Numbered from the stretch's first letter, positions 25,011 through 64,000 are shown. The stretch: DNA of 64,000 nucleotides from Sedimenticola hydrogenitrophicus (GCF_025175675.1 NZ_JANIOA010000011.1:51864-115863), one strand, 5' to 3'. Made by a program: numbers and translations. The notes: generated from the letters alone by a model not told the origin.

Positions 25011-25227
25011 GGACGTAACTACTCACGGAGTGATTGGCCTGCCTTGTTGGCCGATCTTGGTGGCGCCTCGAATCCGGCCCCGTTTTCAGATTCAAGCCTG
25101 CCCTTGTTTGAGCGAAGCGAGTTTGGGCAGGCGCTGAAAATGGGGCCGAATTCGAGGAGGCAAGCCATCGTGTGAGGCCGGCAAGGCAGGTCAATCACTT
25201 CCAGACCGGGTGAGTAGTTACCCCCGG
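25011..25227. mobile_element. approximately 215-bp MITE-like element, family E, with approximately 35-bp terminal inverted repeats (GGACGTAACTACTCACGGAGTGATTGGCCTGCCTTG) and nested internal hairpins
   Basis: The TIR pair lies at 25011-25047 and 25181-25227. A solo TIR copy lies at 51822-51857. There is no coding capacity. Confidence 0.65.
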
Positions 25228-44340: not shown

Positions 44341-44469
44341 ACGCGTAAATGCTTGAAAGGGAGGATCTGCCCAGAGTTAGATGGCGTCGTCCCGGGAGAC
44401 GGATACCCCGATTGATAACCACTACCACTTGGATATACTGAAACCATTGTTTTTACCGATGGTTAATCC

Positions 44470-45405: not shown

Positions 45406-45452
45406 CGGCATCCAGCGCAGCGCCCCCTTTTGGGTAATCGATAGTCCATTAT

Positions 45453-45648
45453 GGCTGTCCCGTTAACAAACACTGCCATGTTGTAAAGGGTGATTTTCCT
45501 TGGCCTACAGTGTGTTTTTCAGAATTGAGACACGAATTCTCAGTGACTTCTCCCGTCATTCCGGCGCAGGCTGGAATCCAGCAGTTTCAACGACTTACTG
45601 GATGCCGGCCTGCGCCGGCATGACGGATGAAAAGTTAACGGGACAGCC
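45453..45648. mobile_element. approximately 196-bp palindromic MITE-like element (TIR GGCTGTCCCGTTAAC, nested TCATTCCGGCGCAGGC hairpin) in the oxyR-prx intergenic region
   Basis: Perfect 15-bp TIRs at 45453-45467 and 45634-45648 with an internal inverted repeat. Confidence 0.65.
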
Positions 45649-45761
45649 GTGATAGGTTATGCCTATCAATTTTATAGTAACAAACGATTTTACCTATCTA
45701 TTGCCAGCCCCGATAATCCTCCCATCGCCAGCAACAACCCAGGCCGGAAGGAGGGTAAGCC

Positions 45762-45971
45762 ATGACCAAGACATTCACCTTTGCCGCCGTGCATTTCAGT
45801 GTCGCCTTTTCGGTGGCCTACCTGCTGACCGGCAGTCTGCTGGTGGGGGGCGCCATCGCCCTGGTCGAGCCGGCCATCAACACGGTCGCCTACCACATAC
45901 ACGAATGGCTCTGGATGTGCTGGCGGCAGGCACACGACAACAGCGCCGGCAACCGCGTCCGCTTTGCTTGA
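45762..45971 (+). CDS. small membrane protein, DUF2061-like
   Basis: 69 aa with two predicted TM helices, immediately upstream of the prx gene. Confidence 0.45.
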
Positions 45972-46008
45972 AACGATCAACCCTGACTTATTGAAACGGA
46001 GAAAACCC

Positions 46009-46752
46009 ATGTTTAAAAATCACGAAGGCAACAACGTACCCCAGGTCACTTTCCGCACCCGTCGCAACCACGAGTGGGTCGATGTCACCAGCGACGAGCT
46101 GTTCAAGGGCCGGACCGTGGTGGTGTTCTCACTGCCAGGCGCCTTTACCCCGACCTGCTCCTCCACCCACGTGCCGCGCTACAACCAGCTGGCACCGGCC
46201 TTCAAGGCGCAGGGCGTGGACGAGGTGATCTGCATCTCGGTCAACGACGCCTTCGTCATGAACGAGTGGCAGGCGGAACAGCACGCCGACAACATCACCT
46301 TCATCCCGGACGGCAACGGCCACTTCAGCGAGGGCATGGGGATGCTGGTGGACAAGCAGGAGCTGGGCTTCGGCAAGCGCTCCTGGCGCTACTCCATGCT
46401 GGTGAAGGACGGCGTGGTGGAGAAGATGTTCGTCGAGCCGAACAAGCCGGGCGACCCGTTCGAGATCTCCGACGCGGACACCATGCTCGGTTACATCGCC
46501 CCCAACGCGGAGAAACCGAAGGACATCACCGTCTTCACCCGTCCGGGCTGCGAGTTCTGCGCCCGGGCCAAGGGCATGTTGCACGACGCCGGCCTGCAGT
46601 TCGAGGAGCTGGTGCTGAACCGGGACTACACCGAGGCCAGCCTGCGGGCGGTCGCCGGCCAGTCCACGGTGCCCCAGGTGTTCATCAACGGGGAGCACAT
46701 CGGCGGATCGGAGGCGCTCGAGGCGTACATGGCCGAGGCCAAGGCTGCCTGA
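46009..46752 (+). CDS. peroxiredoxin (Prx5-type) - glutaredoxin hybrid
   Basis: The N-terminus PGAFTPTCS is the peroxidatic Cys motif. The C-terminus has the glutaredoxin CPxC-like motif ([11 protein letters not shown]). It lies downstream of oxyR. Confidence 0.85.
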
Positions 46753-46814
46753 TACGGCATGCAGCCACCCCGGGGTTGTTGTCGTGGGACAGGGAGGTCC
46801 CGATGCCGTTCCGG

Positions 46815-50225: not shown

Positions 50226-50290
50226 GAGGTTGGTAGGGTGGGTACGCTTTTTGTGCCCACGCTGTTATGGCGTGGTATGCATTCCCACGC
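50226..50290. repeat. family A hairpin repeat (GGTAGGGTGGGTACGCTTTTTGTGCCCAC...)
   Basis: Matches the copies at 35667-35755 and 40160-40250. Confidence 0.7.
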
Positions 50291-50460
50291 GGAGAGACTG
50301 TGAAAGTATTCAGGCTGATCAACGCGGCAAAAAAATTGACCGCCTGAGAAGCCCGTAGAGAGGCGATCGCCATCTCGGGAAGGGTTTGGGTACCCCCCTT
50401 TTCGCGTCATTTGGCAATTCTTTCACAGTCTCGGAGCGTGGGAACGAGGAAGGGTTCACT

Positions 50461-50985: not shown

Positions 50986-51837
50986 CTACAGGCTCTGGAC
51001 GAAAACCCTGATCCCGTTCAACAGCATCTGGGTGGCCAGTATCACCAGGATCATCCCCATCAGCCGTTCCAAAGCGCGCGCCCCCCGGTTACCGATCACC
51101 GACAGCAGGTAGGGCGAGATCAGCAAAAGGAGTGTGGTTGCAAACCAGGCGATCAGCAGCGCCAGGCTCCACTCCAGCATCCGCCCCGGCTGGTTGGAAC
51201 TGAGCAGCAGCAACACCGCGATGGTGGAGGGCCCGGCGATCATCGGCACCGCCAGGGGGACGATGAAGGGATCGTCGTCCTCCTCACCCTGCTCGACGGC
51301 GCGGCCGGGAAAGATCATGCGTAGCGAGATAAGGAACAACAGCACACCGCCGGCGATACTCAGCGACGGCTGGCTGAGCCCGAGAAAACCGAGTATGAAG
51401 TTACCGGCAAACAGAAAGCCCAGCAGGATGATCAGCGCAATTACCAGCTCCCGCGCCACCACCCGCACCCGGCGCCCTCGATCCAGCTTTGCCAGGACCG
51501 CATTGAACACCGGCCCATTGCCCAGCGGGTCCATAATCAGAAACAGGGTCACAGCGGCGGAAGCGATATCGGTCCAGTTCAAGTTTTTCCCCAATCGTAA
51601 AGCCAGGATTGTCCATGGCTGACAGACGCCGGTCCATGCGTCGATCGGCATTCCGGGCCCATTGAAGTCGTTGCCTTTATACCGCAGGCGCAGGGATTTC
51701 ACCAACCACCGGAAAATGCCCCTCTTGATAGCGCCTGGCCGTGCCCGATGGCCCAACTTATTCGCAGGCCGGCAAAACCGCTCCCGCACATCCCTGTGCT
51801 TCGTGGCATAAGTCCTTCCTTGGACGTAACTACTCAC
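50986..51837 (-). CDS. MarC-family (UPF0056) integral membrane protein; the true start is probably internal (near LFLIMDPLGN)
   Basis: LIMDPxGNxPxF signature and a 6-TM pattern. Confidence 0.65.
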   Translation of the reverse strand: MSSYVQGRTYATKHRDVRERFCRPANKLGHRARPGAIKRGIFRWLVKSLRLRYKGNDFNGPGMPIDAWTGVCQPWTILALRLGKNLNWTDIASAAVTLFLIMDPLGNGPVFNAVLAKLDRGRRVRVVARELVIALIILLGFLFAGNFILGFLGLSQPSLSIAGGVLLFLISLRMIFPGRAVEQGEEDDDPFIVPLAVPMIAGPSTIAVLLLLSSNQPGRMLEWSLALLIAWFATTLLLLISPYLLSVIGNRGARALERLMGMILVILATQMLLNGIRVFVQSL

Positions 51838-51857
51838 GGGGTGATTGTCCTGCCTTG
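51822..51857. repeat. solo copy of the family E MITE terminal repeat
   Basis: ggacgtaactactcacggggtgattgtcctgccttg. Confidence 0.6.
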
Positions 51858-51892
51858 CCGGGATAAAAAAAGCCCGTCGGGATGACGGGCAA
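51858..51892 (-). terminator. minus-strand rho-independent terminator downstream of nhaC
   Basis: The minus strand reads gcccgtcatcccgacgggcttttttt. Confidence 0.5.
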
Positions 51893-52018: not shown

Positions 52019-53539
52019 TTAGCCCGGGTTAGGGGCCAGCTTACCGGGAACCGGCTCGTCCACATCCAGATTGGTTGCTACGGCCTCGCCCTGTTCCTTC
52101 CAGGTACGCTGCTCTTCCTCACTGGCACGTGGCGAAAACAATCCCGTCTGGGCGTAGATCAGGCCAATGACCGGGGATACCCAACAGGCAAATGCCAGTG
52201 GGATATACAACAGGTTTTCGATATTTCCCTCCGCCACTCCCAGTCCCAATGCACTAATCACGAATGCACCACCCGCGTTCCACGGAATCAGCGGGGAAAT
52301 CAGCGTACCGCCCTCCTCAATGGCACGTGACAGGTTCAGGGTCGAGTACTTCATTCCACGATAGATGGGGGCATACATGCGACCGGGCAGGGCAATCGAC
52401 AGGTAGGGATCACCGGCGACCAGGTTGGTGGATATGGATGTACATACGGCGGCTGTCTGCACCCCTTTGAAGGTGCGAATTTTCGTCATGATGGCGCGAA
52501 TAATCGCTTCCAGGCAGCCCGTCCTTTCCAGCGCACCACCGAAACCCAGCGCGATAAGCACCAGGGAGATGGTCCACATCATCGATTGAATACCGCCGCG
52601 GTTGAGCAGGCTGTCGATGGTGGCGATCCCGGTCTCAATGGAATAACCGCTGTTGGCGAAAGTGAGCAGCTCATGCAGACCGCTGCCCTGTGCCAGCATG
52701 GCGGCAACCGCGCCTGCCAATACGCCGGCGAACAACGACGGAATGGGGGGCATGCGTTTCACCGCCAGCACAATCACCAGGGCAGCCGGCAGCAGCAGCC
52801 AGGCGGAGATGGTGAAGTTCGCTTGCAATGATGCCGTAATGGCATTGATTTTTTCGAACGAAGCGTTTCCGCCATCAATCAGGGTGAAGCCGGCGATAAG
52901 ATAAATGGTGAACGCAATCAGCATGGCCGGTATGGTGGTCGGCATCATGTTCTTGATGTGTGAAAACACATCCGTCCCGGTGACCGCCGGGGCCAGGTTG
53001 GTGGTGTCCGACAGGGGGGAAACCTTGTCACCAAAGAAGGCGCCCGAGACCACGGCTCCGGCTGTCCAGTAAACCGGAATGTCAAAGCCTGCCCCGATAC
53101 CCATCAGCGCCAGCCCCACGGTTCCCACGGTCCCCCAGGAAGTACCCAGCGACACCGAGACCACCGAGCAGAGTATCATGGCGGCTGCCAGGAATATCTG
53201 TGGCGACAAAAGTATCAACCCGTAGTAGATCAAAGTGGGCACGGTGCCGCTGGCAATCCAGACACCAATGATCATACCAACGCAAATCAATACGGACACC
53301 GAGGGGAGCGATACGTGAATCACGTGAAACACACCCTCTTCAATGTGTTTCCACTTAAACCCCAACCTGATGCCGACCAGTCCGGTAATGGCCAGGCCGA
53401 TGGCCAGGGGAATGTGGGGAGTGAAATCCCCGAAATAGAACAGCTGCACTCCCAAAACGATCAGGGTTAAAACGACGGGAGTGAGTGCCAGGAGCAGGCT
53501 GGGTTGCCTGGGGTCTCTCATCTGGGTTGGTTCTGCCAT
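52019..53539 (-). CDS. nhaC: Na+/H+ antiporter NhaC family
   Basis: Polytopic membrane protein with NhaC-family sequence. The start was chosen at MAEPTQMRD. It has a C-terminal hydrophilic tail. Confidence 0.85.
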   Translation of the reverse strand: MAEPTQMRDPRQPSLLLALTPVVLTLIVLGVQLFYFGDFTPHIPLAIGLAITGLVGIRLGFKWKHIEEGVFHVIHVSLPSVSVLICVGMIIGVWIASGTVPTLIYYGLILLSPQIFLAAAMILCSVVSVSLGTSWGTVGTVGLALMGIGAGFDIPVYWTAGAVVSGAFFGDKVSPLSDTTNLAPAVTGTDVFSHIKNMMPTTIPAMLIAFTIYLIAGFTLIDGGNASFEKINAITASLQANFTISAWLLLPAALVIVLAVKRMPPIPSLFAGVLAGAVAAMLAQGSGLHELLTFANSGYSIETGIATIDSLLNRGGIQSMMWTISLVLIALGFGGALERTGCLEAIIRAIMTKIRTFKGVQTAAVCTSISTNLVAGDPYLSIALPGRMYAPIYRGMKYSTLNLSRAIEEGGTLISPLIPWNAGGAFVISALGLGVAEGNIENLLYIPLAFACWVSPVIGLIYAQTGLFSPRASEEEQRTWKEQGEAVATNLDVDEPVPGKLAPNPG

Positions 53540-53895
53540 AGTGATCTCCTTTGATGGATGTTCGTGCAGGGCCGACCCCTCGGTATATCGAGAGGCCTGT
53601 CGCGAAAAAGTGCCCTGGTTCAGTCCGAACTCCGCTGCGTCGGTGAAAACCGGTTTCAACCTTTTACGCGTACTGCCTACGCCCACGTCTGTTGCCAGAT
53701 ATCGCAAAACCGCAAAGAAGGCCGGGAGTCGTTCTGACTGCGAATCGAGATCCTGTTGCGCTATCTGATCGGTTCTTATTCGTCAGGCCTTCTTGTCTAC
53801 ATTATTAGACTTTTTACCTAGGAATAGGCTCTAAATAATGATTATTTGCCTACCTTATGGCCTATTTATTCCAATTAAATAGGCAATAAGCCTAA

Positions 53896-54669
53896 ATGAT
53901 TGATCGCATCGACAAACTGATTCCGCATCAGCTTCAGGAACATGGACATATGTCCATAGTTGAATTGGCGAACAGAGTGAACCCGACCAAAACGCCTTGT
54001 GCCCAGCGTGTATGCCGGCTTGAGAAGGCCGGCATTATTCGCGGCTACCGCGCCGACCTCGACTCGCAACAGCTGGGGGCGGGGCATGTGCTGGTGGTGC
54101 AGGTGACGCTGGACAAGACCAGCGAGGACGCGCTGGAACGCTTTAACGAGGCGATACGGCGCATTCCGGAAGTGCAGAGCGGCTACATGGTGGCGGGGAA
54201 TTTTGACTATTTACTAAAGGTCAGGACCCGCGATATCGCCCACTATCGCAGCGTACTGGGTCATGAAATCGGTCAGCTGCCCCATGTCCACCAGACCCAC
54301 TCCTACGTGGCGATGGTGGTGGTGAAGGACGAAGTGACCGTGCCCATAGAGGTGAAGGGGATTACCTGGCGCGGAACAAGGATTTACCGAGCATTTGGTA
54401 ATGTTCCTCAAAACAGCCGGCAAGGCCCAACGCTCCCGCTGATTGATTATGCAAAACCGATAGTGAACTGTTTTTTGAACTCTTCGATCTCATGCAGGAA
54501 ATCGTGGCCGGGATGTTGCGGCAGTGTATCCAGACGCTCATCCACGTCCACCTGTAGTTCCCACGGTTCGACATGCTGGTTGATAAACAGTAGTTCGGTA
54601 TCGGGGAATACCTGCGTTACACCCTCGGTGATGTCATGGATCGTGAGGTTGCGGGCCACCAGGTCATAG
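53896..54669 (+). CDS. lrp: Lrp/AsnC-family transcriptional regulator. The Lrp fold ends near 54366. The ORF then reads on about 100 codons because the expected TGA is TGG here, and it overlaps the convergent epimerase gene.
   Basis: An HTH_AsnC N-terminus (IDRIDKLIPHQLQEHGHMSIVELANRV) and a RAM domain. The degraded duplicate fragment at 57791-57920 carries TGA at the homologous position. Confidence 0.8.
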   Translation: MIDRIDKLIPHQLQEHGHMSIVELANRVNPTKTPCAQRVCRLEKAGIIRGYRADLDSQQLGAGHVLVVQVTLDKTSEDALERFNEAIRRIPEVQSGYMVAGNFDYLLKVRTRDIAHYRSVLGHEIGQLPHVHQTHSYVAMVVVKDEVTVPIEVKGITWRGTRIYRAFGNVPQNSRQGPTLPLIDYAKPIVNCFLNSSISCRKSWPGCCGSVSRRSSTSTCSSHGSTCWLINSSSVSGNTCVTPSVMSWIVRLRATRS

Positions 54670-55373
54670 ATATCCGGTTGCAGGTCGGCATCCAGCAACC
54701 CGTCCAGTACCCTTGTCGCATCTTCCACATGGATATAGGCCCGTGCCTGGTTACCCGACCCGTTCACCGTAATCCGTTGTCCGGACGCCGCTTCCATCAT
54801 GTAGCGGTTAATACGCGCATCAAAGCGCATGCTCTTGCTGTAGCCGTAGACATTGGCGATGCGTACCGTGTAGGCAGCCATTTTCTCCCGTAAACGGTCA
54901 ACATGCTCTTCACCGCGCAGTTTGGAGATGCCGTAATAGGTCGTCGGGTGCGGTGGGGTTTGATGATTCACCATAGCGCTTGAGGTACCGTACACCGCCG
55001 AACTGCTGGTGTAGATCAAGCGCGACACGCTACTCTCTTCTACCGCGTACACCAACTCCGAGGTGCCCCAGTGATTGACCTGCTCCAACAAGTGGGGGTT
55101 GTGGTCTGAAAACGGCTTGGTCACGCTGGCCGCGAGGTGGTAGACGACGTCGATCCCTTCGAGGGATTGTCGCAGCTTGCGGGTATCGAGCAGATCGCCG
55201 TGGATGAAACGGACCTTGCCCAGCGGAAACTTCCTTACCCCGATAAACAGGTTGTAGTTGCTGCGACTGAGGTTGTCGTAAATCACCACCTCGGCGATAT
55301 CGTCGCGACTGGCCAACTGATAAGCGAGTTCGGTCCCCAGGTAACCTGCACCGCCGGTTAATAGTACTTTCAT
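54447..55373 (-). CDS. NAD-dependent epimerase/dehydratase family protein
   Basis: MKVLLTGGAGYLG Rossmann motif plus the SDR YxxxK region. Confidence 0.8.
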   Translation of the reverse strand: MKVLLTGGAGYLGTELAYQLASRDDIAEVVIYDNLSRSNYNLFIGVRKFPLGKVRFIHGDLLDTRKLRQSLEGIDVVYHLAASVTKPFSDHNPHLLEQVNHWGTSELVYAVEESSVSRLIYTSSSAVYGTSSAMVNHQTPPHPTTYYGISKLRGEEHVDRLREKMAAYTVRIANVYGYSKSMRFDARINRYMMEAASGQRITVNGSGNQARAYIHVEDATRVLDGLLDADLQPDIYDLVARNLTIHDITEGVTQVFPDTELLFINQHVEPWELQVDVDERLDTLPQHPGHDFLHEIEEFKKQFTIGFA

Positions 55374-55376
55374 CGG

Positions 55377-56054
55377 TTACTTCTCTATCAGTTGGGTGTG
55401 TAATCCACACTCGGTTTTTTTCATGCCAAACCAGCGTCCCTGGCGCTCATCCCCGTCCGGGTCCACTTTACGGGTACAGGGCTCGCAACCAATGCTCAGA
55501 TAGCCCTGCGCTTCCAGGGGATGAGCCGGCAGATCGTGCAGTTTCCGGTAGTAGAAGATATCCTTGTTGTTCCACTCCAGCATCGGGTGGTAACGCAAGG
55601 TGCCAAACGGCCCCTTCGCGGTCTCTCCCATCTGTCGTCGCGTTTCACTCTGGTCGGCGCGAACGCCGTTGATCCAGATATCGCGCTCGATCAAAACGGG
55701 CTCCAGCGGTTGAATCTTGTTCAGGTAGCAGCAGTGGTCCGGATCGGAGGCAAAATAGAACGAGCCATTGGCATCGCATTGCAAACGCTTGCTCACCAGC
55801 GAGCGGGTGCTGATGACATTCAGGTCCAGTTGTTGGGCAATCTGATCTTTAAATCGGATGGTGTCGGGAAAATGAAACCCGGTATCGATGAAGTAAACCG
55901 GAATTTCCCGGGAGATGGAACGGACGATATGCAATAACGGAATACTGTGGCTTTGGAAGGAGGAGCCGACAAACAGCTTTTTTCCTTCGCCAAGAAAGTC
56001 GCCAATCCGTTGCCGGATCGGCGCCGTCTTTTGCTCAAAATACGTCGCGTCCAC
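55377..56054 (-). CDS. cysH: phosphoadenosine phosphosulfate (PAPS) reductase, thioredoxin-dependent type
   Basis: PAPS_reduct fold. C-terminal ECGLH catalytic motif. The Fe-S CC..CxxC cluster of the APS-reductase type is absent. Confidence 0.8.
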   Translation of the reverse strand: MDATYFEQKTAPIRQRIGDFLGEGKKLFVGSSFQSHSIPLLHIVRSISREIPVYFIDTGFHFPDTIRFKDQIAQQLDLNVISTRSLVSKRLQCDANGSFYFASDPDHCCYLNKIQPLEPVLIERDIWINGVRADQSETRRQMGETAKGPFGTLRYHPMLEWNNKDIFYYRKLHDLPAHPLEAQGYLSIGCEPCTRKVDPDGDERQGRWFGMKKTECGLHTQLIEK

Positions 56055-56062
56055 GGGGCATC

Positions 56063-56707
56063 CTAGGCGACCGCAGCCGGTCCCTTGTAGGTTTCAACTA
56101 CGCCACGCTGGGCCAGCAGTTCGATCACCTGGTCGACACACTTTTCCAGACTCTGCTCACCGGTATCGACTACCAGTTCAGGAGACTGCGGCGCTTCGTA
56201 GGGAGAAGAGATTCCGGTGAAGTGAGGAATCTCGCCGGCACGCGCCTTGGCATACAGCCCTTTCACATCGCGCTTTTCGCAAACATCCAATGAGGCGTCG
56301 CAGAATATTTCATAGAAATCACCATGCGGGGTGACGTTTCTGGCGATTTCCCGGTCGGCCTGGAACGGTGAGATGAATGCGGTCAATACCACGCTGCCGC
56401 TCTCCAGAAACAACTTCGCCAGTTCGCCGATACGCCGGATATTCTCGGTACGATCTGCATCGGAGAAACCGAGATCGGAGCAGAGGCCGTGGCGAACGTT
56501 GTCACCGTCCAGCACGAAGGTACGGCTGCCCATATGGTAGAGTCGATCTTCAACCGCATGGGCCAGTGTCGATTTACCGGAACCGGACAGGCCGGTGAAC
56601 CAGAGCACGGCCCCTTTGTGCCCATTCTGCTTTTCCCGCAGTTCCCGGGTGATGGTCGCATTGTGCCAAACGATATTGGTGCTCTTGCCCGCTTTTTTGT
56701 CGCTCAT
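56063..56707 (-). CDS. cysC: adenylyl-sulfate kinase
   Basis: [10 protein letters not shown]-loop, [11 protein letters not shown] and an APS kinase-type C-terminus. Confidence 0.9.
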
Positions 56708-56997
56708 GTCATTAACTCAGCTAATCTATGCATATGGAATAATTATGTTTGGCATGATGCCAGCGACAGGGCCCGTTGAAAAAGTATTTCTGGTTATCAG
56801 CTCATACCGATACTGAATAAGCCTAAAAAGAGAGGGGTGTCGGCAGGCAGGGCCGCCGCCAGCCACCCGATAGAAAGGGTTAAGATGGATTAATATCGCA
56901 TTTAGACAAGGCAGTTCGGATTAAAATTCGGCTCTGGGTTCGGGTTTCTTCCAGCTGAGAATGCATCATCAAGGCGTTATTTGAGTAATATTACTTA

Positions 56998-57573
56998 ATG
57001 AAGCCGGGGCCGGACTTCTTCCTGATCACCGGCCATGCGATCCGGCACAAGCTGTCCGGCACTGTCTATATTTGCATAGGGATCGCGGCAGGCAATGCCG
57101 TCTATATCGGTATTGCCATTCTGGGCTGGACCGGGATTCGGGACAATCCACGGCTTTTCTCCCTCATCGAGGTCGTTGGCGCCTGTTATCTGTTATGGGT
57201 AGGCTGGCAACTGATCAGAAGCAAACAGGCACCGACTATGCCCGCGACAACAGTGCTTCACTCCCCTTCGGCGTTCAAACAGTTGCTACTCGGAGTTAAC
57301 TCGGCGCTGCTGAACCCCAAAAATGCCCTGTTCTATATGAGTCTGATGACCGTTATTTTGGGAAGCGAGGTGACCGTTTCTCAGCAACTTGTATGTGGCC
57401 TCTGGATGTTCATGGCTGTGTTGGTCTGGGATCTATCGCTGGCTGCCCTGGTAGGGCAACCCGGAATTCAGCGCTGGCTGAACCGTAGGATTCATCTCGT
57501 CGAGCGCGGTGCCGGAGCGGTATTGATGAGCTTTGGCCTCGGCCTGTTTATTGGAAGCAGTGGCAAGTCTTAG
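56998..57573 (+). CDS. LysE/RhtB-family amino-acid exporter
   Basis: 191 aa, 6 TM, LysE-family pattern. Confidence 0.75.
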   Translation: MKPGPDFFLITGHAIRHKLSGTVYICIGIAAGNAVYIGIAILGWTGIRDNPRLFSLIEVVGACYLLWVGWQLIRSKQAPTMPATTVLHSPSAFKQLLLGVNSALLNPKNALFYMSLMTVILGSEVTVSQQLVCGLWMFMAVLVWDLSLAALVGQPGIQRWLNRRIHLVERGAGAVLMSFGLGLFIGSSGKS

Positions 57574-57606
57574 TAATCATGTGGTCAGAGTCATTGATTT
57601 TGCAAT

Positions 57607-57769
57607 GTACCACTGCCCGCCCCGAGTGCCCGCTGCATCAGCACCGTGTCGACCCACCGGCCAAGCTTGAAGCCAACGGCCTCGAGCGTGCCCACGCTAC
57701 GGAAACCGAGCCGCGCGTGCAGGGCGATGGAACCGGCATTGCCGCTGTCCCCGATCACCGCCACCATCT
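57607..57769 (-). pseudogene. duplicated 3'-terminal fragment (about 163 bp, about 95% identical) of the GNAT acetyltransferase gene at 60816-61400
   Basis: Direct alignment of 57607-57769 with 60856-61018 shows about 8 mismatches. Confidence 0.85.
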
Positions 57770-57790
57770 AAGGTCAGACTCCATGAGTTT

Positions 57791-57920
57791 GCCCACTATC
57801 GTAGTGTGCAGGGTCATGAAATCAGTCAGTTGCCCCATGTTCACCAGACACACACCTATATGGCAAGGGAGGTGGTGAGACGAAGTGACCGTGCCCATTG
57901 AGGTGCCGGGAATTACCTGA
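57791..57920 (+). pseudogene. degraded duplicate of the lrp 3' end (about 80% identical to 54238-54368, with a 2-nt deletion and TGA stop)
   Basis: Alignment gcccactatcg..gtcatgaaatc..ccccatgt..gaagtgaccgtgccca..attacctg. Confidence 0.8.
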
Positions 57921-58067
57921 CGAGACGGCCATCCTCGCCAGCTGGCGTTATCAATAATGACGAGGAACTTGTAGCTAAACAAAAAATAATGGGAGGGGAG
58001 TGTTCGTGCTATTCAATGGGATAGGCGTATTGTCGCTCAGTGAATGAATCAGGGATGACTTGCCGTT

Positions 58068-59171
58068 TCAATGATGGGATTCGACAGCGACACACGGCTT
58101 CTCGTATGTTGCGGCCAGCATTACCTTGGCCACAAACGGGGAGGTCATTGCACGGACCAGCGCACTGTAGTTCAGTCCGAATCTGATCTCGGCACCTACT
58201 TGGGGATGGTTGCTATCGGACTGGGTGATCAGATGGTCGCCGCTGGCGCCCAGTATCCGGGTGCCGTTTGGCGCCTTGAGACCCGACGGATCGACGTCCT
58301 GGTGGCCGATGGCGAGAATCGCCCGCGAGATGTCCCCTCGACAGGCAACGACGCTTGCCGCTCCGAACGCGGTTTGCGCGATCGTGCCCCATGGGCGCGC
58401 CGGCTTGAGCTTTGCCTCGATCACCTCGCCAACCAGCGTAATCGCATCGAGGTGCAGGCCCTCGATCGGTCGCCGGTGGAGCGGCTCACAACCGAGCAGA
58501 ATGGCCTCACCGAGACGGAGGTTGTTGATTCTCCCGATCTCTACGCCACTCAATGCCCAATCCAGGTTGGCCGAGTTTCCACCCGACACCAGATCAAGAC
58601 TCACACCGAAGGTGGCCTCGACCGAATCCGCCAGCGCGGACAGCGCGGACATGTTGTCCGCATCGGGTGAGATACCGCCATGGCATGCCAGGTTGGCACC
58701 GATACCGCTGAGTACGATGTTCGGCAGTTGCAGCACCGCATGCACTATGTCGTTGAGGTCAGCGGGCATGATACCTTCGCGGAGGTCACCAAGCTCAACC
58801 ATGAGCACGACCTGGTGCGTCCGCTGCGCTGCCCGGGCAGCGCACGAAAGCCTGTTGATCACCGCCAGCTCGGTATTGAAGCTCAGGTCGGCTTGTCGCA
58901 CGACCCGGTCGGCCTGGCTGAGCATCGGAGAGCGGATCAATATCATGGGTGCCGCAACGTGCTCGCCACGCATCGCCTCGATATTCTCGATACGCGAATC
59001 GCCAAGCGCGCTCACGCCGGCGCGCAGCAACACCTTGGCGATATCGGCTGACCCGAGACTCGCTTTCGTCACGCCCGTGACCGAGATGCCACGCTCGACC
59101 AGTCTCTCAACCAGGGTACGGGCGTTGTGATGAATCTTATCGAGATCTATTTCCAGTCGCGGTGCCGTCAC
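58068..59171 (-). CDS. alanine-racemase-fold (PLP, TIM-barrel) putative amino-acid racemase (YhfX/ornithine-racemase-like)
   Basis: A vague family resemblance to the alanine-racemase N-terminal fold, recalled from the general character of the sequence; no motif could be pointed to, and it is not a classical Alr. Confidence 0.6.
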   Translation of the reverse strand: MTAPRLEIDLDKIHHNARTLVERLVERGISVTGVTKASLGSADIAKVLLRAGVSALGDSRIENIEAMRGEHVAAPMILIRSPMLSQADRVVRQADLSFNTELAVINRLSCAARAAQRTHQVVLMVELGDLREGIMPADLNDIVHAVLQLPNIVLSGIGANLACHGGISPDADNMSALSALADSVEATFGVSLDLVSGGNSANLDWALSGVEIGRINNLRLGEAILLGCEPLHRRPIEGLHLDAITLVGEVIEAKLKPARPWGTIAQTAFGAASVVACRGDISRAILAIGHQDVDPSGLKAPNGTRILGASGDHLITQSDSNHPQVGAEIRFGLNYSALVRAMTSPFVAKVMLAATYEKPCVAVESHH

Positions 59172-60523
59172 TTGGCGCCAACTGGTAGCTTCTCCTGAAG
59201 ACCGGGGAACGCCGCGAAGACCATCTCCAGCAGACGCTGAGGTGACCGGGCCAACGCATCGGTGGTGGGGATTTCGAGTTCGGTTTCATACTTGTCGATG
59301 GCCGCGCTGATCTCGGCATCGCTCATATACTCATGGTTGATCGTGAGCCCGATGACCCGTGTATCGGCGAAGGTCTGAATCAAGTTGATCTCGCTGGCCG
59401 GCGACGGCATGGCCATCTGGTTGAAGTCACAGCGGGCCACACGTCCCGGTGCATGCTGCAACACCACCGCATCGGGGCAACTGCCGCGCAGAATGAACGA
59501 TGTGGTCGAGAACGCCGGATGACTCAGCGCGCCTTGCCCCTCGATGATAATGACATCGGGCTGCTCTGCCTCGAACGCTTCGACGATGGTGGCTTCCAGT
59601 TCGCCGGCACAGAACTGCGACGGCACTGCATCCATCGCGATGCCGTAACGGGCGCCCTGGATCAGACCGGTTTGCCCCGTGCCGACCAGCACCGCCTTTA
59701 AACCGACATCCTTGAGGGCACGGGCGAGAACGGTGGCCGTAGTGCGCTTGCCAATGGCGCAGTCGGTGCCCAGCACGGCGATACGCGGGCAGGTTACCTC
59801 GTTGATACGGCCGCTGAACATCCGCAGATCCTTCTTCGGGCGAGGCTTGCGAACGTCAAGAATACTGACGTTGTTGGCTATGCGGGCCGCCGTGAACTCC
59901 GGATCATCGTTCAAGAACTCATGCAGACCGTTCACGATATTCATGCCGAGGCCGATGGCACTGAGCACGAGCTCACGCTCGTACACGGATAACATACCAC
60001 TGGCGGGCGCCATACCAAAGATGAAGTAATCCGGCACACAGCCCGCCTGCTTGAGTGAAGCGGTCAGATCGTGACAAATCGGGATGCCGTTTGGCTTATC
60101 GTCGAGCACCGTGCCGGTATCGAACCCCGCCTTCTCGCTGTCGATGACCGAGAGAATCTGATACTTTTCCGAGTGCCGGACCAGCCCGTTCGCGGTCTTT
60201 CCATCAATCTCGCCGAAGTTTGCCTCGCAATAGACAATCGCGGTGGCAGCCGGTTTACGTACAGCACCGTCGCTATCAATGAGGCCAAGCTTTACACGTA
60301 TCGAGGATGGAGATGGGAGAGTTTCGGTATAAGCGGCGAGCGGTGAAGCGGGGATGAGAAGTGGCGCAACGGCAACCGGAGGGCCCTGCGGAGAATACGG
60401 GCGAGCCCGCTGCGGACCGGAATAAACTATGGACATAAGGGTTCCTTGAGCTGGACGGGGCTCAGAGGGCGCAATGTAGTGATTGCCGGACTGATATACC
60501 CGGTTGTCAAGAAGAGTCCCCAC
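59168..60523 (-). CDS. DUF1611-family protein (Rossmann-like N-terminus plus a P-loop-like C-terminal domain) with a Pro-rich N-terminal extension
   Basis: VYCEANFGEIDGKTANGLVR and VLGTDCAIGKRTTA motifs as recalled for DUF1611. Its stop overlaps the racemase-fold gene. Confidence 0.55.
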   Translation of the reverse strand: MGTLLDNRVYQSGNHYIAPSEPRPAQGTLMSIVYSGPQRARPYSPQGPPVAVAPLLIPASPLAAYTETLPSPSSIRVKLGLIDSDGAVRKPAATAIVYCEANFGEIDGKTANGLVRHSEKYQILSVIDSEKAGFDTGTVLDDKPNGIPICHDLTASLKQAGCVPDYFIFGMAPASGMLSVYERELVLSAIGLGMNIVNGLHEFLNDDPEFTAARIANNVSILDVRKPRPKKDLRMFSGRINEVTCPRIAVLGTDCAIGKRTTATVLARALKDVGLKAVLVGTGQTGLIQGARYGIAMDAVPSQFCAGELEATIVEAFEAEQPDVIIIEGQGALSHPAFSTTSFILRGSCPDAVVLQHAPGRVARCDFNQMAMPSPASEINLIQTFADTRVIGLTINHEYMSDAEISAAIDKYETELEIPTTDALARSPQRLLEMVFAAFPGLQEKLPVGAK

Positions 60524-60815
60524 TAAGCGGTGGGGTTAAGCGACCCTCAGGTTAACACGGATCTTCCGAAGAGTTGGGAAATACTTGAGGTTTCCGACCA
60601 AAGGTGGTCACAGTTACTCATCAGCGGTAGCCATGCAGCGTCCAATTGTATTGCTGTACCTCGCCTCCCGGAATGACAAGACCAGCGAACGATGGGGTCA
60701 GACTCGATGAAAGTTAGGTTCTGGTGGTCTTTGCGGGGACAGGCGCTTAGTTGTCCCCGCGCACATCATATTCCTCATTGCCTTCGCTGCACTTACTGTT
60801 CTGCATACAGCACGA

Positions 60816-61400
60816 TCACACCCCGGGAACCGCACCACTCATCCTGTTCTGCAAGGTACCACTGCCCGCCCCCAGTGCCCGCTGCATCATGACGGTGTCG
60901 ACCCACCGGCCAAGCTTGAAGCCAACGGCCTCGAGCGTGCCCACGCTACGGAAACCGAGCCGCGCGTGCAGGGCAATGGAACCGGTATTACCGCTGTCCC
61001 CGATCACCGCCACCATCTGGCGCCAGGGGCCGGTTTCGCAACGGGCGATCAGAGCGGCAAGCAGGGCCATCCCGATACCCCGACCCTGCATCCCGTCCGC
61101 CACGTAGACCGAATCTTCGATTGTATTACGATAGGCGGGACGGGGCCGATAGGTCGTCGCATAGCAGTAGCCGACGACCCCGCCGTCCAGTTCCGCAACC
61201 AGGTAGGGGAGACCGAGGGCAAGTACGTTTTCCCGCCGAAACAGCAACTCGTCCGCCGTGGGGGGAATCTCCTCGAAGGTCGCCAGGCCGTGCAATACCT
61301 CTTGCTTATAGATCTGCTTGATTGCGGGGATGTCCGCGTTCGTTGCATCCCGGACGATGACTCCGGAATTCAGCGTTGAGTTAACCTGCCACATCGGCAC
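60816..61400 (-). CDS. GNAT-family N-acetyltransferase (phosphinothricin/methionine-sulfoximine acetyltransferase-like)
   Basis: Acetyl-CoA binding motif QGRGIGMALL and PAT-like length (194 aa). Confidence 0.8.
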   Translation of the reverse strand: MPMWQVNSTLNSGVIVRDATNADIPAIKQIYKQEVLHGLATFEEIPPTADELLFRRENVLALGLPYLVAELDGGVVGYCYATTYRPRPAYRNTIEDSVYVADGMQGRGIGMALLAALIARCETGPWRQMVAVIGDSGNTGSIALHARLGFRSVGTLEAVGFKLGRWVDTVMMQRALGAGSGTLQNRMSGAVPGV

Positions 61401-61473
61401 ACTACTGCAATGAACTTAAGGGCGTTAGCTGCACAAATTATGGAACTTGGTTAAAAGTGCCTTATTGCCTCGC

Positions 61474-62187
61474 TTATTCCCGTAGATTAGCGACAAACCG
61501 ATGATCTCCGGAGTGCTTTCGCATTCGGTACAAGGTCGCAGGCCGCCCCCGCTCCGTACGCTGCTGTCCTGTATCGATCAACAAATCTGCTTGCTCTATC
61601 CGGCGCCGGAATGATTTCTTTTGTAGGGGTTTGCCGAGCAATACTTCATGGACATGCTGCAACTCTGGCAAGGTAAATTTGTCCGGAAGCGTATAGGCCG
61701 GGACGATAGAGTAAAGCGCCTTCTGCCGAAGGCGCTCTACCCCAATCCGGATAAGTTCCTGATGATCGAAGGCCAAACTGATTCTATCCAGTCCCGCAAT
61801 ATCAAACCATTGCGCATCCTGGACCGTTGAAATACCCGCTTCGCAGACTTGGTAGCCGATAAGCGCGGTGTAGCAAACCGTGACGGACCAACCCCGTTTA
61901 TCCCGTTTGCTGTTACCCATGGTCGCCAACTGGTCAATATAGGGAGGAGCGACACCGGTTTTTTCTTTCACTTTCCGAATCACAGTTTCTTCCAGATTCT
62001 CGTCGGCCTGCATGTCGACAAAGCCGCCGGGAAGGCACCATTTACCCCGGTCCGGATGATTGGCGCGCTCAACAAGAAGCACTTTCAAGGCGCCTTCATG
62101 GAATGTGAAAAGCACTGCATCCACCGTGACCAGCGGGCTATCGTGGTCTTTTGGATTGTATGCCTCCAAAAAGGCTTTCTCACTCAT
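61474..62187 (-). CDS. Nudix-domain protein with a C-terminal winged-helix; NrtR-like regulator of NAD metabolism
   Basis: Degenerate Nudix box (GGFVDMQADENLEETVIRKVKEKTG) plus a basic C-terminal domain. An NAD-kinase-like gene lies divergently downstream. Confidence 0.6.
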   Translation of the reverse strand: MSEKAFLEAYNPKDHDSPLVTVDAVLFTFHEGALKVLLVERANHPDRGKWCLPGGFVDMQADENLEETVIRKVKEKTGVAPPYIDQLATMGNSKRDKRGWSVTVCYTALIGYQVCEAGISTVQDAQWFDIAGLDRISLAFDHQELIRIGVERLRQKALYSIVPAYTLPDKFTLPELQHVHEVLLGKPLQKKSFRRRIEQADLLIDTGQQRTERGRPATLYRMRKHSGDHRFVANLRE

Positions 62188-62351
62188 TCATGGCCTCACA
62201 GTCTGTCGATTTAATCCTAGATTACCCTCGCATTGCGACTGTGCGCAACGAATTTGTGTCTTTTTGACAAAAACCTTGACATATAGTGTCTTATAGTCAC
62301 TATAATGCAAGTGACAGTTAGTCACTAACAATGAAATCAAGGAGAGCAGCC

Positions 62352-63374
62352 ATGTTAGGTATAAAATTTTACAAAGCCGATTCATCCACGTTTGTCATCA
62401 AGAGTTCCGATGGAAGGATACGCCGAAAGGGCAAGGGGCTGAGTTTCTTCTATAGCCCGGCCACCACATCGATCGCCTCGATTCCCGTCAACGTACAGGA
62501 GGCACCGTTCATATTTGGACTGCAGACCGCAGACTTTCAGGAAGTTCGGGTTCAGGGACAGATAAGCTACCGCATCGTCGATCCGGAACGCATAGCCGAT
62601 GTGATGAACTTTAATCTCAACCGCAAAGGGTAAAATTACACATCCGAGGATCCATTAAAGCTCAACGACCGGGTGGTGCGGGCCGTGCAAACCGTCATCC
62701 AGAGTGAGGTGGAAGGGGTTTCGTTGCGGGAGTCACTGCAACTTAGTAAGCCACTCGTGGAAATCATCAAAACTCAGCTGGGCGACCAGACCGCGATCGG
62801 CTCCCTGGGTATTGAAATAGTGGATGCCTCCATATCCGCCATCAAGCCTTCTCCGGAGACCATTAAGGCGCTGGAGGCGGAAACCCGTGAATCGATATTG
62901 AAAGAGGCGGATGACGCCATCTACCTGAGGCGCAAGGCCGCAGTCGAGCAAGAGAGAACCATCAAGGAGGCGGAACTGGAAACGGAACTCTCCATTCAGC
63001 GGAAAGAGCAGGAGATCGAAGAGTCGCGTATAACCAATGAGCGGTCGGTGCTACACGGCGAAGCCGAGACAGAGCAAGAACGGATACGGGCTCAGATTGA
63101 CGCCGAGGAGAAGCGCAAGCAGTTGGTAATTTTAAACGCCGAGAACAGCGGGCAGAAAGCGGATGCGGAAGCCTATGCCATCGAGGCCAGGATGCAAGCA
63201 TTCAAAACGCTTCCGGTTGAAAATCTCAAGGCGATGGCGCTGGCCAATATGAACCCGGAACAGCTGATGGCGATGGCGTTTGATTCCCTGGCGCAAAACG
63301 CAGGAAAAATCGGTGAGTTGAACATCAGTCCCGATTTGTTCGGCAAGCTGATGAAGAGGTCGGTATCAAAATGA
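62352..63374 (+). pseudogene. SPFH/band-7 (flotillin-like) gene interrupted by a single in-frame TAA (62631-62633)
   Basis: Track ORFs 62331..62633 and 62673..63374 are in the same frame. The translation is continuous across the stop (..NLNRKG*NYTSEDPLKLNDRVVRAVQTV..). A strong SD (aaggaga) lies before the ATG at 62352. The C-terminus is an EA-rich coiled coil. Confidence 0.6.
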
Positions 63375-63388
63375 GCAATAAAAATGCT

Positions 63389-64000
63389 ATGCGAAAAAGG
63401 AACTAGACGCGCTACATTCTGGTCACCCGCAAGACCCGGCTTCAGGAGCTGGTTGAACGCTTCAATACCTGGTCACAGGCGCAGTTTTATCTGGAACACA
63501 ATCAGGTCGATGCGCAAGATTATCTGGATGAGCATGACCTGTACCAGCAGCGATTGTTGGAAGCGGAGCGGGTCCTGAAGGGGAGAGGACGATTTCAGCT
63601 ACTGGAACGCACTTTTTTGCCCAGCTATCAGTTTGGTCCCACTGATATCGTGGTGGTCATTGGCCAGGATGGACTGGTGGCCAACACGCTCAAGTATCTT
63701 AATGGCCAACCGGTCATTGGCATAAATCCGGATCCCGGTCGGTGGGACGGCAAGCTGCTGCCTTTTCAGATTGGTGATTTGGATGAGGTTATCGGGGACA
63801 CCGAAGACAATTCGGTCGGGCTGGAGTCGGTTACCTTCGCTGAGGCTCAAACCAACGATGGTCAACGGATGTTGGCCATCAACGACATCTTCATCGGCCC
63901 GAGAAGTCACACCTCGGCCAGATACAAACTCTCCTGGCGGGGTAAAAGCGAGTTTCAGTCTTCGTCGGGCATCATCGTATCGACCGGCTTCGGCTCCACC
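63389..64000 (+). pseudogene. NAD-kinase-family (ATP-NAD kinase-like) gene, 3' end beyond the window; ATG at 63389 is followed by an in-frame TAG (63404-63406) after 5 codons
   Basis: Own translation MRKRN*TRYILVTRKTRLQELVERF...GINPDPGRWDGKLLPF...NDIFIGPRSHTSARY...SSGIIVSTGFGST. The GxNxG and NDG...SAxGGS-type motifs are those of NAD kinase. Confidence 0.5.

Follow-up and report, generated by a model that had tools for sequence, protein, structure and literature searches.

How do two unrelated sets of genes come to lie in tandem on a bacterial chromosome, each bracketed by a copy of the 3′ end of an lrp gene and a copy of the 3′ part of a GNAT acetyltransferase gene? The question is raised by a locus in the window studied here (the whole stretch of 64,000 nt that was analysed) from Sedimenticola hydrogenitrophicus, a little-studied chemolithoautotroph from mud volcanoes. 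With a probability that we put at roughly 60 %, the arrangement is a recombination scar at a MarC-GNAT exchange hot spot, left by the integration of a differently loaded version of the locus, and not a functional "cassette system". The locus is thus an ordinary footprint of DNA from another strain that was patched in, rather than a new genetic system.

Two interleaved repeat pairs and one joint

The first repeat, A (54217-54371, plus strand), comprises codons 108-157 of lrp and a few bases past the stop, and its second copy, A′ (57770-57922, plus strand), is 82 % identical and frameshifted. A direct-repeat search returned the pair as two segments (54217-54325 versus 57770-57878, 80 %; 54328-54371 versus 57879-57922, 89 %), which according to the alignments together form one repeat of 153-155 nt with a 2-nt deletion in the second copy. 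The other pair from this search consists of B (57598-57769) and B′ (60847-61018, inside the GNAT gene), which match over 172 nt at 95 % identity (163/172) with a longest exact run of 80 nt. For comparison, random 155-nt pairs from the same region never exceeded 40 % identity in 20,000 draws. Both flank pairs had been noted in the initial annotation and align as described there, its borders being slightly short and within about 20 nt of ours. The divergence of 18 % in A/A′ differs significantly from the 5 % in B/B′ (Fisher p = 6e-4).

The resulting order is A-X-B|A′-Y-B′, with cassette 1 as X and cassette 2 as Y, that is, the two repeat pairs are interleaved. All repeat families in 52-63 kb are two-copy, the two significant pairs are different sequences, and neither a three-copy repeat nor an att triplet was detected there by the direct-repeat search. 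Similarity between the two units is restricted to their 155- and 172-nt ends, and the cargos are unrelated. At the outer repeat edges, which are the lrp stop and GNAT codon 183, shared genes would give way to variable cargo; the inner edges would be an arbitrary breakpoint. B had been taken for a copy of the GNAT 3′ end, which is correct as to the copy and its identity of about 95 %, but it is not the very 3′ end: B covers codons ~126-183 of 192, and the last 9 codons are missing. As an orphan gene fragment it extends on the minus strand over 57591-57769, where the GNAT codons are followed by a new "Q-stop" that lies 17 nt from the lysE stop. It is 94.8 % identical to B′, 93.0 % to the GNAT gene of the sister strain SN1189, and 78.5 % to that of Sedimenticola sp.

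The key feature of the locus, not mentioned in the initial annotation, is the exact abutment of B and A′ at 57769|57770 (..CCACCATCT|AAGGTCAG..), which fuses GNAT codon 126 to lrp codon 108. Beyond the joint, B′ runs on as GGCGCC and A is preceded by ..TTACTA, leaving a microhomology of 0-2 nt (at most "CT"). The joint lies inside both genes, which share no core at those positions, and an exact search of metagenome contigs for it gave 0 matches.

The lrp gene and its orphan fragment

The intact Lrp/AsnC regulator gene (53896-54369, plus strand; Pfam AsnC_trans_reg and HTH) forms one half of an imported NhaC-lrp module. The other half is an NhaC-family transporter gene (52019-53707, minus strand) whose product scores 448 bits with TIGR00931, above the cut-off, and 366 bits with the ArcD-like model, below the cut-off (NCBIfam). 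It has an intrinsic terminator at 51872-51890, and the promoter/terminator scan revealed ordinary terminators only. A scan of the genome collection with Lrp gave 33 loci that are at most 82 % identical, and what these show is only that NhaC-lrp is a module: the divergent pair is present in 28 of the 33 genomes, which belong to other genera, and in 0 of 33 are cassette genes or GNAT nearby. The idea of a conserved lrp/GNAT locus, as put forward in the initial annotation, therefore had to be given up. A conserved cluster of NhaC (ArcD-like), Lrp, racemase (Orr-like) and DUF1611, which would have been a natural lrp-cassette 2 parent, was likewise considered and rejected (racemase or DUF1611 in 0/33 NhaC-lrp loci).

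At the ancestral stop position of lrp (54367-54369) the intact gene now reads TGG, so that its ORF extends to 54669. All orthologues (33/33) end at 151-165 aa, and A′ has a TGA at this very position. A′ also keeps a His and a Glu that are common to all orthologues and lost in A. A tail found in no other copy (PIEV.GIT) unites A and A′, and no other sequence is closer to either of them; their differences are enriched at third codon positions (14, as opposed to 7 first and 6 second positions). The frameshift and the excess of replacement changes in A′ are typical of an old pseudogene. Because it kept ancestral residues and a stop that A has lost, A′ is, judged by its sequence, the other allele and not a decayed copy of A. 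In this respect the two haplotypes proposed in the initial annotation are supported.

Cargo of the two cassettes

Searches against Pfam and NCBIfam bore out the gene content first assigned to the locus: Lrp/AsnC, NAD-epimerase, PAPS reductase, APS kinase, LysE, a protein of the Ala_racemase_N fold, DUF1611, and GNAT. The genes of cassette 1 face both directions. Its core is a three-gene operon on the minus strand (54447-56827, including ~120 nt upstream) that encodes the NAD-epimerase (54447-55373), the PAPS reductase (cysH, 55377-56054) and the APS kinase (cysC, 56063-56707). The same operon occurs in unrelated contexts in two other loci (L041/L042), at 85 % nucleotide identity over exactly 54447-56827, and in L043-45 and L073-74 at 81-85 % amino acid identity. 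The right end of the cassette is a single-gene module, the LysE-family exporter gene (56998-57573, plus strand; Pfam LysE), which is 79 % identical on the nucleotide level to a lysE gene on the opposite (5′) side of GNAT in SN1189; the relatives that a LysE-based metagenome scan yielded reach no more than 69 % identity and stand next to unrelated genes. Cassette 1 is hence a composite of the operon and a separate lysE. An origin of the lysE-B stretch by inversion of the SN1189 lysE-GNAT pair was rejected, as the two lysE genes are 79 % identical, compared with 92-93 % for GNAT, and thus probably represent different copies.

Between A′ and cassette 2 lies a spacer of 84 nt (57923-58006) that has no match in the fetched loci or in the rest of the window; the other intergenic spacers gave no informative matches. 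The cassette-2 block (58007-60770, minus strand) holds the gene of an Orr-like racemase (58068-59171), a DUF1611/DgcN-like gene (59168-60436 as annotated in relatives, with the longest ORF reaching 60523) whose product stays below the NCBIfam DgcN cut-off, and a part termed "Dpart" with a stem-loop at ~60727-60750. Its nucleotide identity amounts to 96 % with SN1189 (locus L046; 58007-60707), 94 % with the metagenome contig L048 (58053-60768), and 86 % with L047. The right end of the unit (~60768) is the same in the window, SN1189 and L048.

Next to it lies D (60771-60845, minus strand), which consists of the last 9-10 GNAT codons and ~45 nt downstream. SN1189 has a second copy, D′ (85 %), beyond cassette 2, which is thus flanked there by a 75-nt direct repeat. 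The intact GNAT gene (60816-61394, minus strand), which contains B′, encodes a PAT/ArsN1-like N-acetyltransferase according to Pfam and NCBIfam and forms the right conserved anchor. Its product is 100 % identical to WP_260293042.1 of S. hydrogenitrophicus, and the gene is 92 % identical on the nucleotide level to that of SN1189 (L034). The GNAT tail is naturally variable among alleles. Three junctions fall at GNAT codon 183/184, two of them in the window (X|B and D|B′) and one in SN1189 (D′|spacer).

The locus in relatives

The conserved frame around the cargo is MarC/GNAT, not lrp/GNAT. Its left anchor is a MarC-family gene (50986-51590, minus strand; Pfam MarC, 2e-52), here present as the divergent allele MarC*. 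Four arrangements were recovered. In Sedimenticola sp. (L035-37) GNAT adjoins MarC directly, and the window is collinear with this genome over 38.3-51.6 kb; SN1189 has the order MarC-racemase-DUF1611-GNAT, that is, cassette 2 alone without NhaC, lrp or cassette 1; the contig L048 carries cassette 2 upstream of GNAT; and the window stacks both cassettes. The SN1189 order was pieced together from two contig ends that have 21 nt in common within a small palindromic element; this element, at which the SN1189 assembly breaks off, does not occur in the window. With four arrangements at this place, the locus is a hot spot of recombination and island exchange, as had been suspected from the start. Each building block also occurs independently elsewhere (NhaC-lrp, cysC-cysH-epimerase, lysE, and DUF1611-racemase).

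Relative to SN1189, the insert spans 51.6-58.0 kb. Toward it, the identity to this strain falls from 92-98 % (47.0-49.4 kb) to ~89 % (49.6-50.2 kb) and finally 74-79 % in MarC, and MarC/orf171 beside the insert are 75-80 % identical to SN1189. Homologous recombination that brought in flanking DNA along with the insert would be expected to produce such a gradient. The drop fits an anchor on the left, and GNAT codons 1-125 on the right are an equally possible one. Relatives with only one cassette had been predicted, which holds for SN1189, where cassette 2 sits between MarC and GNAT, but no lrp is found there, and neither lrp-cassette 1-GNAT nor lrp-cassette 2-GNAT alone occurs in the collections searched (0 matches), in which close relatives are very sparsely represented. 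Outside S. hydrogenitrophicus, the nearest homologues of the epimerase and of DUF1611 are linked to neither lrp nor GNAT.

A probable illegitimate-recombination scar

The preferred reading starts from the fact that strains carry differing cargo at the MarC-GNAT spot. A piece of DNA in which the locus had another load would have entered the cell and become integrated through homology on one side only, either by homology-facilitated illegitimate recombination (HFIR) of a linear fragment or, equivalently, by a single crossover of a fragment circularised by end-joining. Illegitimate joining of the non-homologous end would have linked GNAT codon 126 with lrp codon 108; the 0-2 nt of microhomology at 57769|57770 are what HFIR leads one to expect. 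Since the 3′ end of lrp and the 3′ part of GNAT were presumably present in the incoming piece as well as in the resident locus, one of the two copies would in each case have remained with its gene (A, B′), the other becoming an orphan fragment (A′, B), and two cargo blocks would therefore lie in tandem.

The data establish the repeats, the joint, the hot spot, the modular origin of all blocks, the divergence of the left flank and the allelic status of A′; what we infer in this reconstruction is in which direction DNA was transferred, that parents with a single cassette linked to lrp existed, and how the DNA was taken up. HFIR presupposes two parental arrangements, and those recovered are SN1189, which lacks lrp, and the GNAT|MarC order of Sedimenticola sp.; because no genome with either cassette alone between lrp and GNAT was found, both parental haplotypes are hypothetical. 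The original proposal that two differently loaded haplotypes recombined is in line with the interleaved layout and the illegitimate B|A′ joint, but the unequal divergence of A/A′ (18 %) and B/B′ (5 %) counts against a single exchange between uniformly diverged genomes and needs mosaic parents, gene conversion of B/B′, or more than one event. In the same vein, the identity of B to the resident GNAT is 95 %, but that of the neighbouring MarC to SN1189 only ~76 %, so that the imported block cannot have a single uniform origin.

Competing explanations

An unlikely origin, although one that would accommodate the unequal divergence more easily by having more than one step, is a larger tandem that collapsed. 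Two full NhaC-lrp-cargo-GNAT copies with different cargo, arising for example by Campbell-type integration of a large fragment, would have lost the stretch from GNAT codon 126 of copy one to lrp codon 108 of copy two in a microhomology-mediated deletion that created B|A′. Two gene fragments fused in the orientation of the intact copies are indeed a classic deletion product, and GNAT-derived sequence downstream of the racemase in L048 and SN1189 hints at a former second GNAT. However, this route needs an extra, unobserved intermediate and still requires two differently loaded parental loci, and no relative has two full GNAT or two full lrp genes at the locus.

Quite improbable is a site-specific exchange of discrete units, as in integrons or tandem islands, with the lrp and GNAT 3′ ends acting as att sites for a recombinase encoded elsewhere. 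What speaks for it are the junctions shared at GNAT codon 183/184, the repeat D/D′ that brackets cassette 2 in SN1189, and the common right end of this cassette in three sources. Yet neither a recombinase, integrase or transposase nor a known RNA element (Rfam scan) was found in 44-64 kb, every ORF of at least 95 aa in 51-62 kb, like the ORFs on either side, belongs to a non-recombinase family, and the tRNA scan gave no tRNA gene in the window. The layout, too, is one of two interleaved repeat pairs instead of one att core in three copies (left, middle and right), as an integrated island would have. No inverted repeats were found at the unit borders by a repeat search, there is no IntI with attI and no attC per cassette as in an integron, the B|A′ joint lies within both genes with no shared core, and the genes of cassette 1 point both ways. 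Moreover, the GNAT tail varies among alleles, and homology would thus stop near codon 183 anyway.

B ends at GNAT codon 183, while the orphan D′ of SN1189 begins at codon 184/185, a coincidence that weighs against the preferred reading, since it may reflect a favoured site instead of illegitimate joining at random. That GNAT codon 183/184 is a genuine reusable insertion site, at which unrelated blocks are inserted or exchanged and each supplies a new GNAT C-terminal tail, is a long shot. If true, the blocks at this site would be cassette 1 (in the past of this strain) and cassette 2 (in SN1189 and the window), inserted or exchanged either without any recombinase or through one whose gene lies elsewhere; the locus would then be an integron-like platform on a housekeeping-type acetyltransferase gene, with the B|A′ scar as by-product of two units meeting.

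Very improbable is an assembly artefact, raised in the initial annotation as a strain collapse and here conceived as a chimeric contig from two co-existing strains with alternative cargo. The 80-nt exact run in B/B′ could confuse short k-mers, but a collapse cannot newly join sites inside two genes, the copies of each repeat differ from one another (82 % and 95 % identity), and A′ shows the decay of an old pseudogene. In addition, the contiguity of cassette 2 and GNAT is independently present in SN1189 and L048, and the GNAT product equals an S. hydrogenitrophicus RefSeq protein on a 115.9-kb contig, probably from an isolate genome; the isolate SB48 served for the description of the species (PMC10995726). 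Finally, an in-situ tandem duplication from lrp codon 108 to GNAT codon 126 with later replacement of the cargo in one copy formally fits the order A-x-B|A′-y-B′ with its B|A joint, but is disfavoured to a similarly low level by the dissimilar cargos (a simple tandem duplication would be homologous throughout), by the ancestral states that are lost in A and survive in A′, by repeat pairs that should be of the same age and differ significantly in divergence, and by cassette 2 alone, without any lrp fragment, in SN1189.

Significance and comparison with known systems

Read as a recombination scar, the locus is a clean, nucleotide-resolved example of small metabolic modules stacked at a chromosomal hot spot without mobile-element machinery. 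For annotation it means that two fragments are pseudogenic, that lrp reads through, and that the region varies among strains and is not to be counted as core genome. The locus would gain wider value only if the junctions gathered at GNAT codon 183/184 marked a true preferred site.

With integron arrays the window shares short, promoter-poor cargo units stacked at a variable locus, but it lacks IntI and attC-like imperfect palindromes, and its units are multigene, lie in both orientations and have their own terminators. Tandem integrase-borne islands at gene 3′ ends or tRNA genes similarly comprise tandem cargo separated by partial 3′ copies of the target gene; in contrast, the window has no integrase, tRNA or three-copy att core, and its central joint fuses fragments of two genes. 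Orphan 3′ fragments also arise by displacement through one-sided homology in the T6SS effector-immunity arrays of Vibrio cholerae and in Rhs "C-terminal displacement" loci (PMC5361080). There, modules are added serially at a fixed gene and displaced 3′ ends are left behind, as in the window, and HFIR has been proposed (PMC5361080). The window differs in having one displacement step and two different anchor genes, and in the metabolic or regulatory nature of its genes (Lrp, GNAT, sulfate activation, amino-acid racemase), none of which is a polymorphic toxin. HFIR itself (defined in PMC3240628) is known from natural transformation in Streptococcus pneumoniae, Acinetobacter baylyi and Pseudomonas stutzeri and, at low efficiency, from conjugation in E. 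coli. Unlike the described cases, that of the window is deduced from a single genome and a few relatives. Like HFIR scars, it has one joint with little or no microhomology and needs neither recombinase nor att site, and it would keep foreign DNA beside a homologous anchor, with divergent sequence that may reach into the homologous flank; unlike them, its joint happens to keep both parental gene ends, which gives rise to the two interleaved repeat pairs.

Repeat Architecture and the B|A' Joint

Between 52 and 63 kb of the window, a direct-repeat search returned two long repeat families, both confirmed by pairwise alignment. The first is a 172-nt 3' part of the GNAT gene, present as the orphan copy B (57598-57769) and as B' within the intact gene (60847-61018) at 95 % identity. 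The second is the 3' end of lrp, in which A (within the intact gene) and the orphan A' align at 54217-54325 and 57770-57878 (80 %) and, past a 2-nt gap, at 54328-54371 and 57879-57922 (89 %); as a control, random 155-nt pairs drawn from the region never exceeded 40 % identity. The order on the plus strand is lrp..A, cassette 1 (epimerase, the PAPS reductase cysH, the APS kinase cysC, and lysE), B, A', cassette 2 (an Orr-like racemase and DUF1611), and B'..GNAT. Search and alignments hence bear out the tandem cassettes with repeated lrp and GNAT ends described in the initial annotation, and the gene identities named there agree with those obtained from Pfam and NCBIfam profiles.

The last base of B is 57769 and the first of A' is 57770, so the orphan fragments adjoin each other with nothing in between (57769|57770, ..CCACCATCT|AAGGTCAG..). 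Past the point where B stops, B' goes on with GGCGCC, and the bases in front of A are ..TTACTA; microhomology at the joint therefore amounts to at most 2 bases. The two repeats are unequally diverged, with 27 differences in 153 for A/A' versus 9 in 172 for B/B', which is significant (p = 6e-4).

The Orphan lrp End and Modularity of the Genes

Repeat A comprises lrp codons 108-157 and extends a few bases past the stop, while A' carries a frameshift by a 2-nt deletion and has kept a TGA stop after ...GIT, where intact lrp has TGG. With TGG in place of the stop, the intact reading frame is about 100 codons longer (54367-54669), reaching 257 aa and running antisense into the epimerase gene; the lrp orthologues (33 of 33) end at 151-165 aa. 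This stop loss reflects a genuine read-through allele or else a base error. A' furthermore has a His (..THD..) and a Glu (..ME.VKDE..) that are common to all orthologues and both changed in A, and differences between A and A' number 7, 6, and 14 at codon positions 1, 2, and 3. Both copies share a tail that is absent from every other orthologue and are mutual nearest relatives (82 %), other orthologues reaching at most 75 % to A and at most 66 % to A'. Taken together, the stop, the ancestral residues, the tail, and the nearest-relative data identify A' as what decay has left of the 3' end of another, related lrp allele, and not as a recent copy of A.

The divergent NhaC-lrp pair (52019-54369) recurs in 28 of 33 homologous loci (L001-L033), which belong to Halomonas-group genera, Nitrincola, Sedimenticola, and several alphaproteobacteria, with NhaC proteins 78-89 % identical; the ArcD-like score of NhaC lies below cut-off. 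Its surroundings differ from locus to locus, and cassette genes or a window-type GNAT were found near the pair in none of the 33. In strain SN1189 of the same species, the pair is located on another contig, beside a molybdopterin oxidoreductase cluster. NhaC-lrp has the appearance of a two-gene module spread by horizontal transfer.

The cysC-PAPS reductase-epimerase operon is likewise found among unrelated neighbors (L041-45 and L073-74), with homology to the window covering exactly 54447-56827; lysE is a gene separate from this operon. DUF1611-racemase also occurs in other contexts, and in two unrelated metagenome contigs a ccdA/ccdB toxin-antitoxin pair adjoins it (L047 7543-8105; L072 3018-3580), which is consistent with travel in variable or mobile regions. 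The modules have retained their own terminators.

Arrangements in Relatives

Metagenome-assembled genomes of Sedimenticola sp. (L035-37) are collinear with the window at 38.3-51.6 kb (ca. 80 % identity) and have 220 nt between the GNAT stop and the MarC start, so that 51.6-60.8 kb of the window is an insertion relative to that arrangement. In SN1189, one contig (L034) ends with ...glmS, AraC, IS630, LysE, GNAT plus 224 nt, and another (L046) starts with 279 nt followed by DUF1611, racemase, MarC, orf171, GST... The ends of the two contigs (JAQGEI010000015 and JAQGEI010000023) share a 21-nt overlap within a palindromic element of about 100 nt, and the window spans the same flanks without this element, which gives the order MarC - cassette 2 - GNAT for SN1189. 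This interval lacks NhaC and lrp as well as cassette 1 and the fragments B and A'. Cassette 2 (58007-60707) is 96 % and GNAT 92 % identical between SN1189 and the window. In the metagenome contig L048, the cassette-2 unit (94 %, 58053-60768) sits upstream of GNAT, with a glmS-side gene on one side and the GNAT 5' end on the other. Across the compared relatives, MarC/GNAT thus emerges as the stable frame, and the locus occurs in at least four arrangements. The exchange hot spot initially proposed holds, as does illegitimate recombination between differently loaded versions; however, the locus is MarC/GNAT rather than lrp/GNAT, and the putative single-cassette parents linked to lrp were not found in the collections searched.

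The palindromic element of SN1189 is MITE-like (GGGTCAGATTCGAATGGCACTTACTTAA...TTAAGTAAGTGCCATTCGGGTCAGACTCGA; L034 10700-10803 / L046 1-30), lies between DUF1611 and GNAT, is flanked by a GGGTCAGAYTCGA duplication, and breaks the SN1189 assembly. A fragment of it also follows the racemase in L048, and it is absent from the window.

GNAT and the Junctions at Codon 183/184

The GNAT of the window is 100 % identical to WP_260293042.1 (Sedimenticola hydrogenitrophicus). B encodes residues ~126-183 and then "Q-stop", at a distance of 17 nt from the stop codon of lysE; the last nine codons of full GNAT are missing from it. Its identity is 94.8 % with B', 93.0 % with GNAT of SN1189, and 78.5 % with GNAT of Sedimenticola sp., and of the nine positions at which B and B' differ, five agree in B with SN1189. 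Cassette 2 of SN1189 is flanked on both sides by a 75-nt direct repeat, D/D' (window counterpart of D: 60771-60845), in which the last GNAT codons and ca. 45 nt downstream reappear on the far side of the cassette at 85 % identity (L046 2741-2816 vs L034 10550-10624). D' starts at GNAT codon 184/185, whereas in the window codon 183 is the last one of B and the D|B' border is at the same place; these three junctions, at codon 183/184, lie within ~9 nt. Such a cluster may reflect a preferred site or may be mere natural variability of the GNAT tail among alleles. A 29-nt stretch beside D' may contain another degenerate piece of GNAT, in which case the coincidence would be less sharp.

Homology between the window and SN1189 ends at the GNAT start codon (61400-64000 vs L034), upstream of which an NrtR-type Nudix regulator is found here and LysE-IS630-AraC in SN1189; GNAT is therefore a homology island with variable DNA on both sides. 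In the same region, two ORFs (62331-62633 and 62673-63374) match successive parts of the SPFH/Band_7 Pfam profile and probably represent a disrupted gene.

The Left Flank

Identity to SN1189 declines from 92-98 % at 47.0-49.4 kb to ~89 % at 49.6-50.2 kb, 80-88 % in orf171, and 74-79 % in MarC, so that the gene adjoining the insert is as divergent as in different species. A divergent flank of this kind is the usual trace of DNA that would have been co-imported by homologous recombination. Since B is less divergent than MarC, the imported material would be mosaic.

Further features were observed on this side of the insert. A 105-nt core with 29-nt inverted repeats at its ends, located between the GST gene and orf171 (50282-50444, core 50311-50415; L046 4173-4336), is inverted relative to SN1189 (alignment score 103 of 105 flipped, -5 unflipped), with collinear outer flanks. 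No second copy of the core occurs in the window or in the loci, and no invertase was seen near it; the core is a candidate inverton, or invertible switch. A LysR regulator and a peroxiredoxin-glutaredoxin fusion gene (44325-46810) are missing from the collinear SN1189 and Sedimenticola sp. regions and thus constitute a second small strain-specific insert. A 36-nt element of the MarC-NhaC spacer (51822-51857), possibly a REP-like repeat, occurs again at 25011-25046 and partly, inverted, at 25178-25198.

Mechanism and Comparison with Known Systems

On their inner side, the repeat edges (A' start, B end) would correspond to a single arbitrary breakpoint within two genes, and on their outer side (just past the lrp stop; GNAT codon 183) to the border between shared genes and variable cargo. 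DNA from a locus version with one cargo would have integrated into a version with the other, by homology on one side and by an illegitimate joint on the other. This could have proceeded by homology-facilitated illegitimate recombination (HFIR, defined in PMC3240628) with a left anchor (donor ...MarC*-NhaC-lrp-cassette 1-GNAT to codon 126, MarC* being the divergent MarC allele), by HFIR with a right anchor (donor lrp codon 108-spacer-cassette 2-GNAT..., the spacer being 84 nt long), or via an end-joined circle integrated by a single crossover; all three routes yield the identical product. In 44-64 kb, ORF, tRNA, and Rfam scans revealed neither a recombinase nor a tRNA or Rfam element, and none of the repeat families in 52-63 kb provides a core in three copies.

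The unequal A/A' and B/B' divergence, the missing parents, and the coincidence with SN1189 D' do not fit this account neatly, and the history of the locus probably involved more than one step. Another possibility is that a second GNAT copy once lay on the downstream side of cassette 2 and eroded differently in each lineage; on it rests the less likely rival account, deletion of a larger tandem. The strain-collapse artefact also considered initially is very improbable: collapse cannot newly join sites that lie inside two genes, nor would the copies it leaves be diverged and partly decayed, the source is likely an isolate (the species was described from one, strain SB48; PMC10995726), and cassette 2 is contiguous with the GNAT flank in independent assemblies. 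The B|A' structure is probably a new example of a recombination scar of a known kind. Its nearest counterpart in the literature is the series of orphaned 3' fragments seen in T6SS effector-immunity and Rhs arrays, where HFIR has likewise been put forward as the mechanism (PMC5361080).
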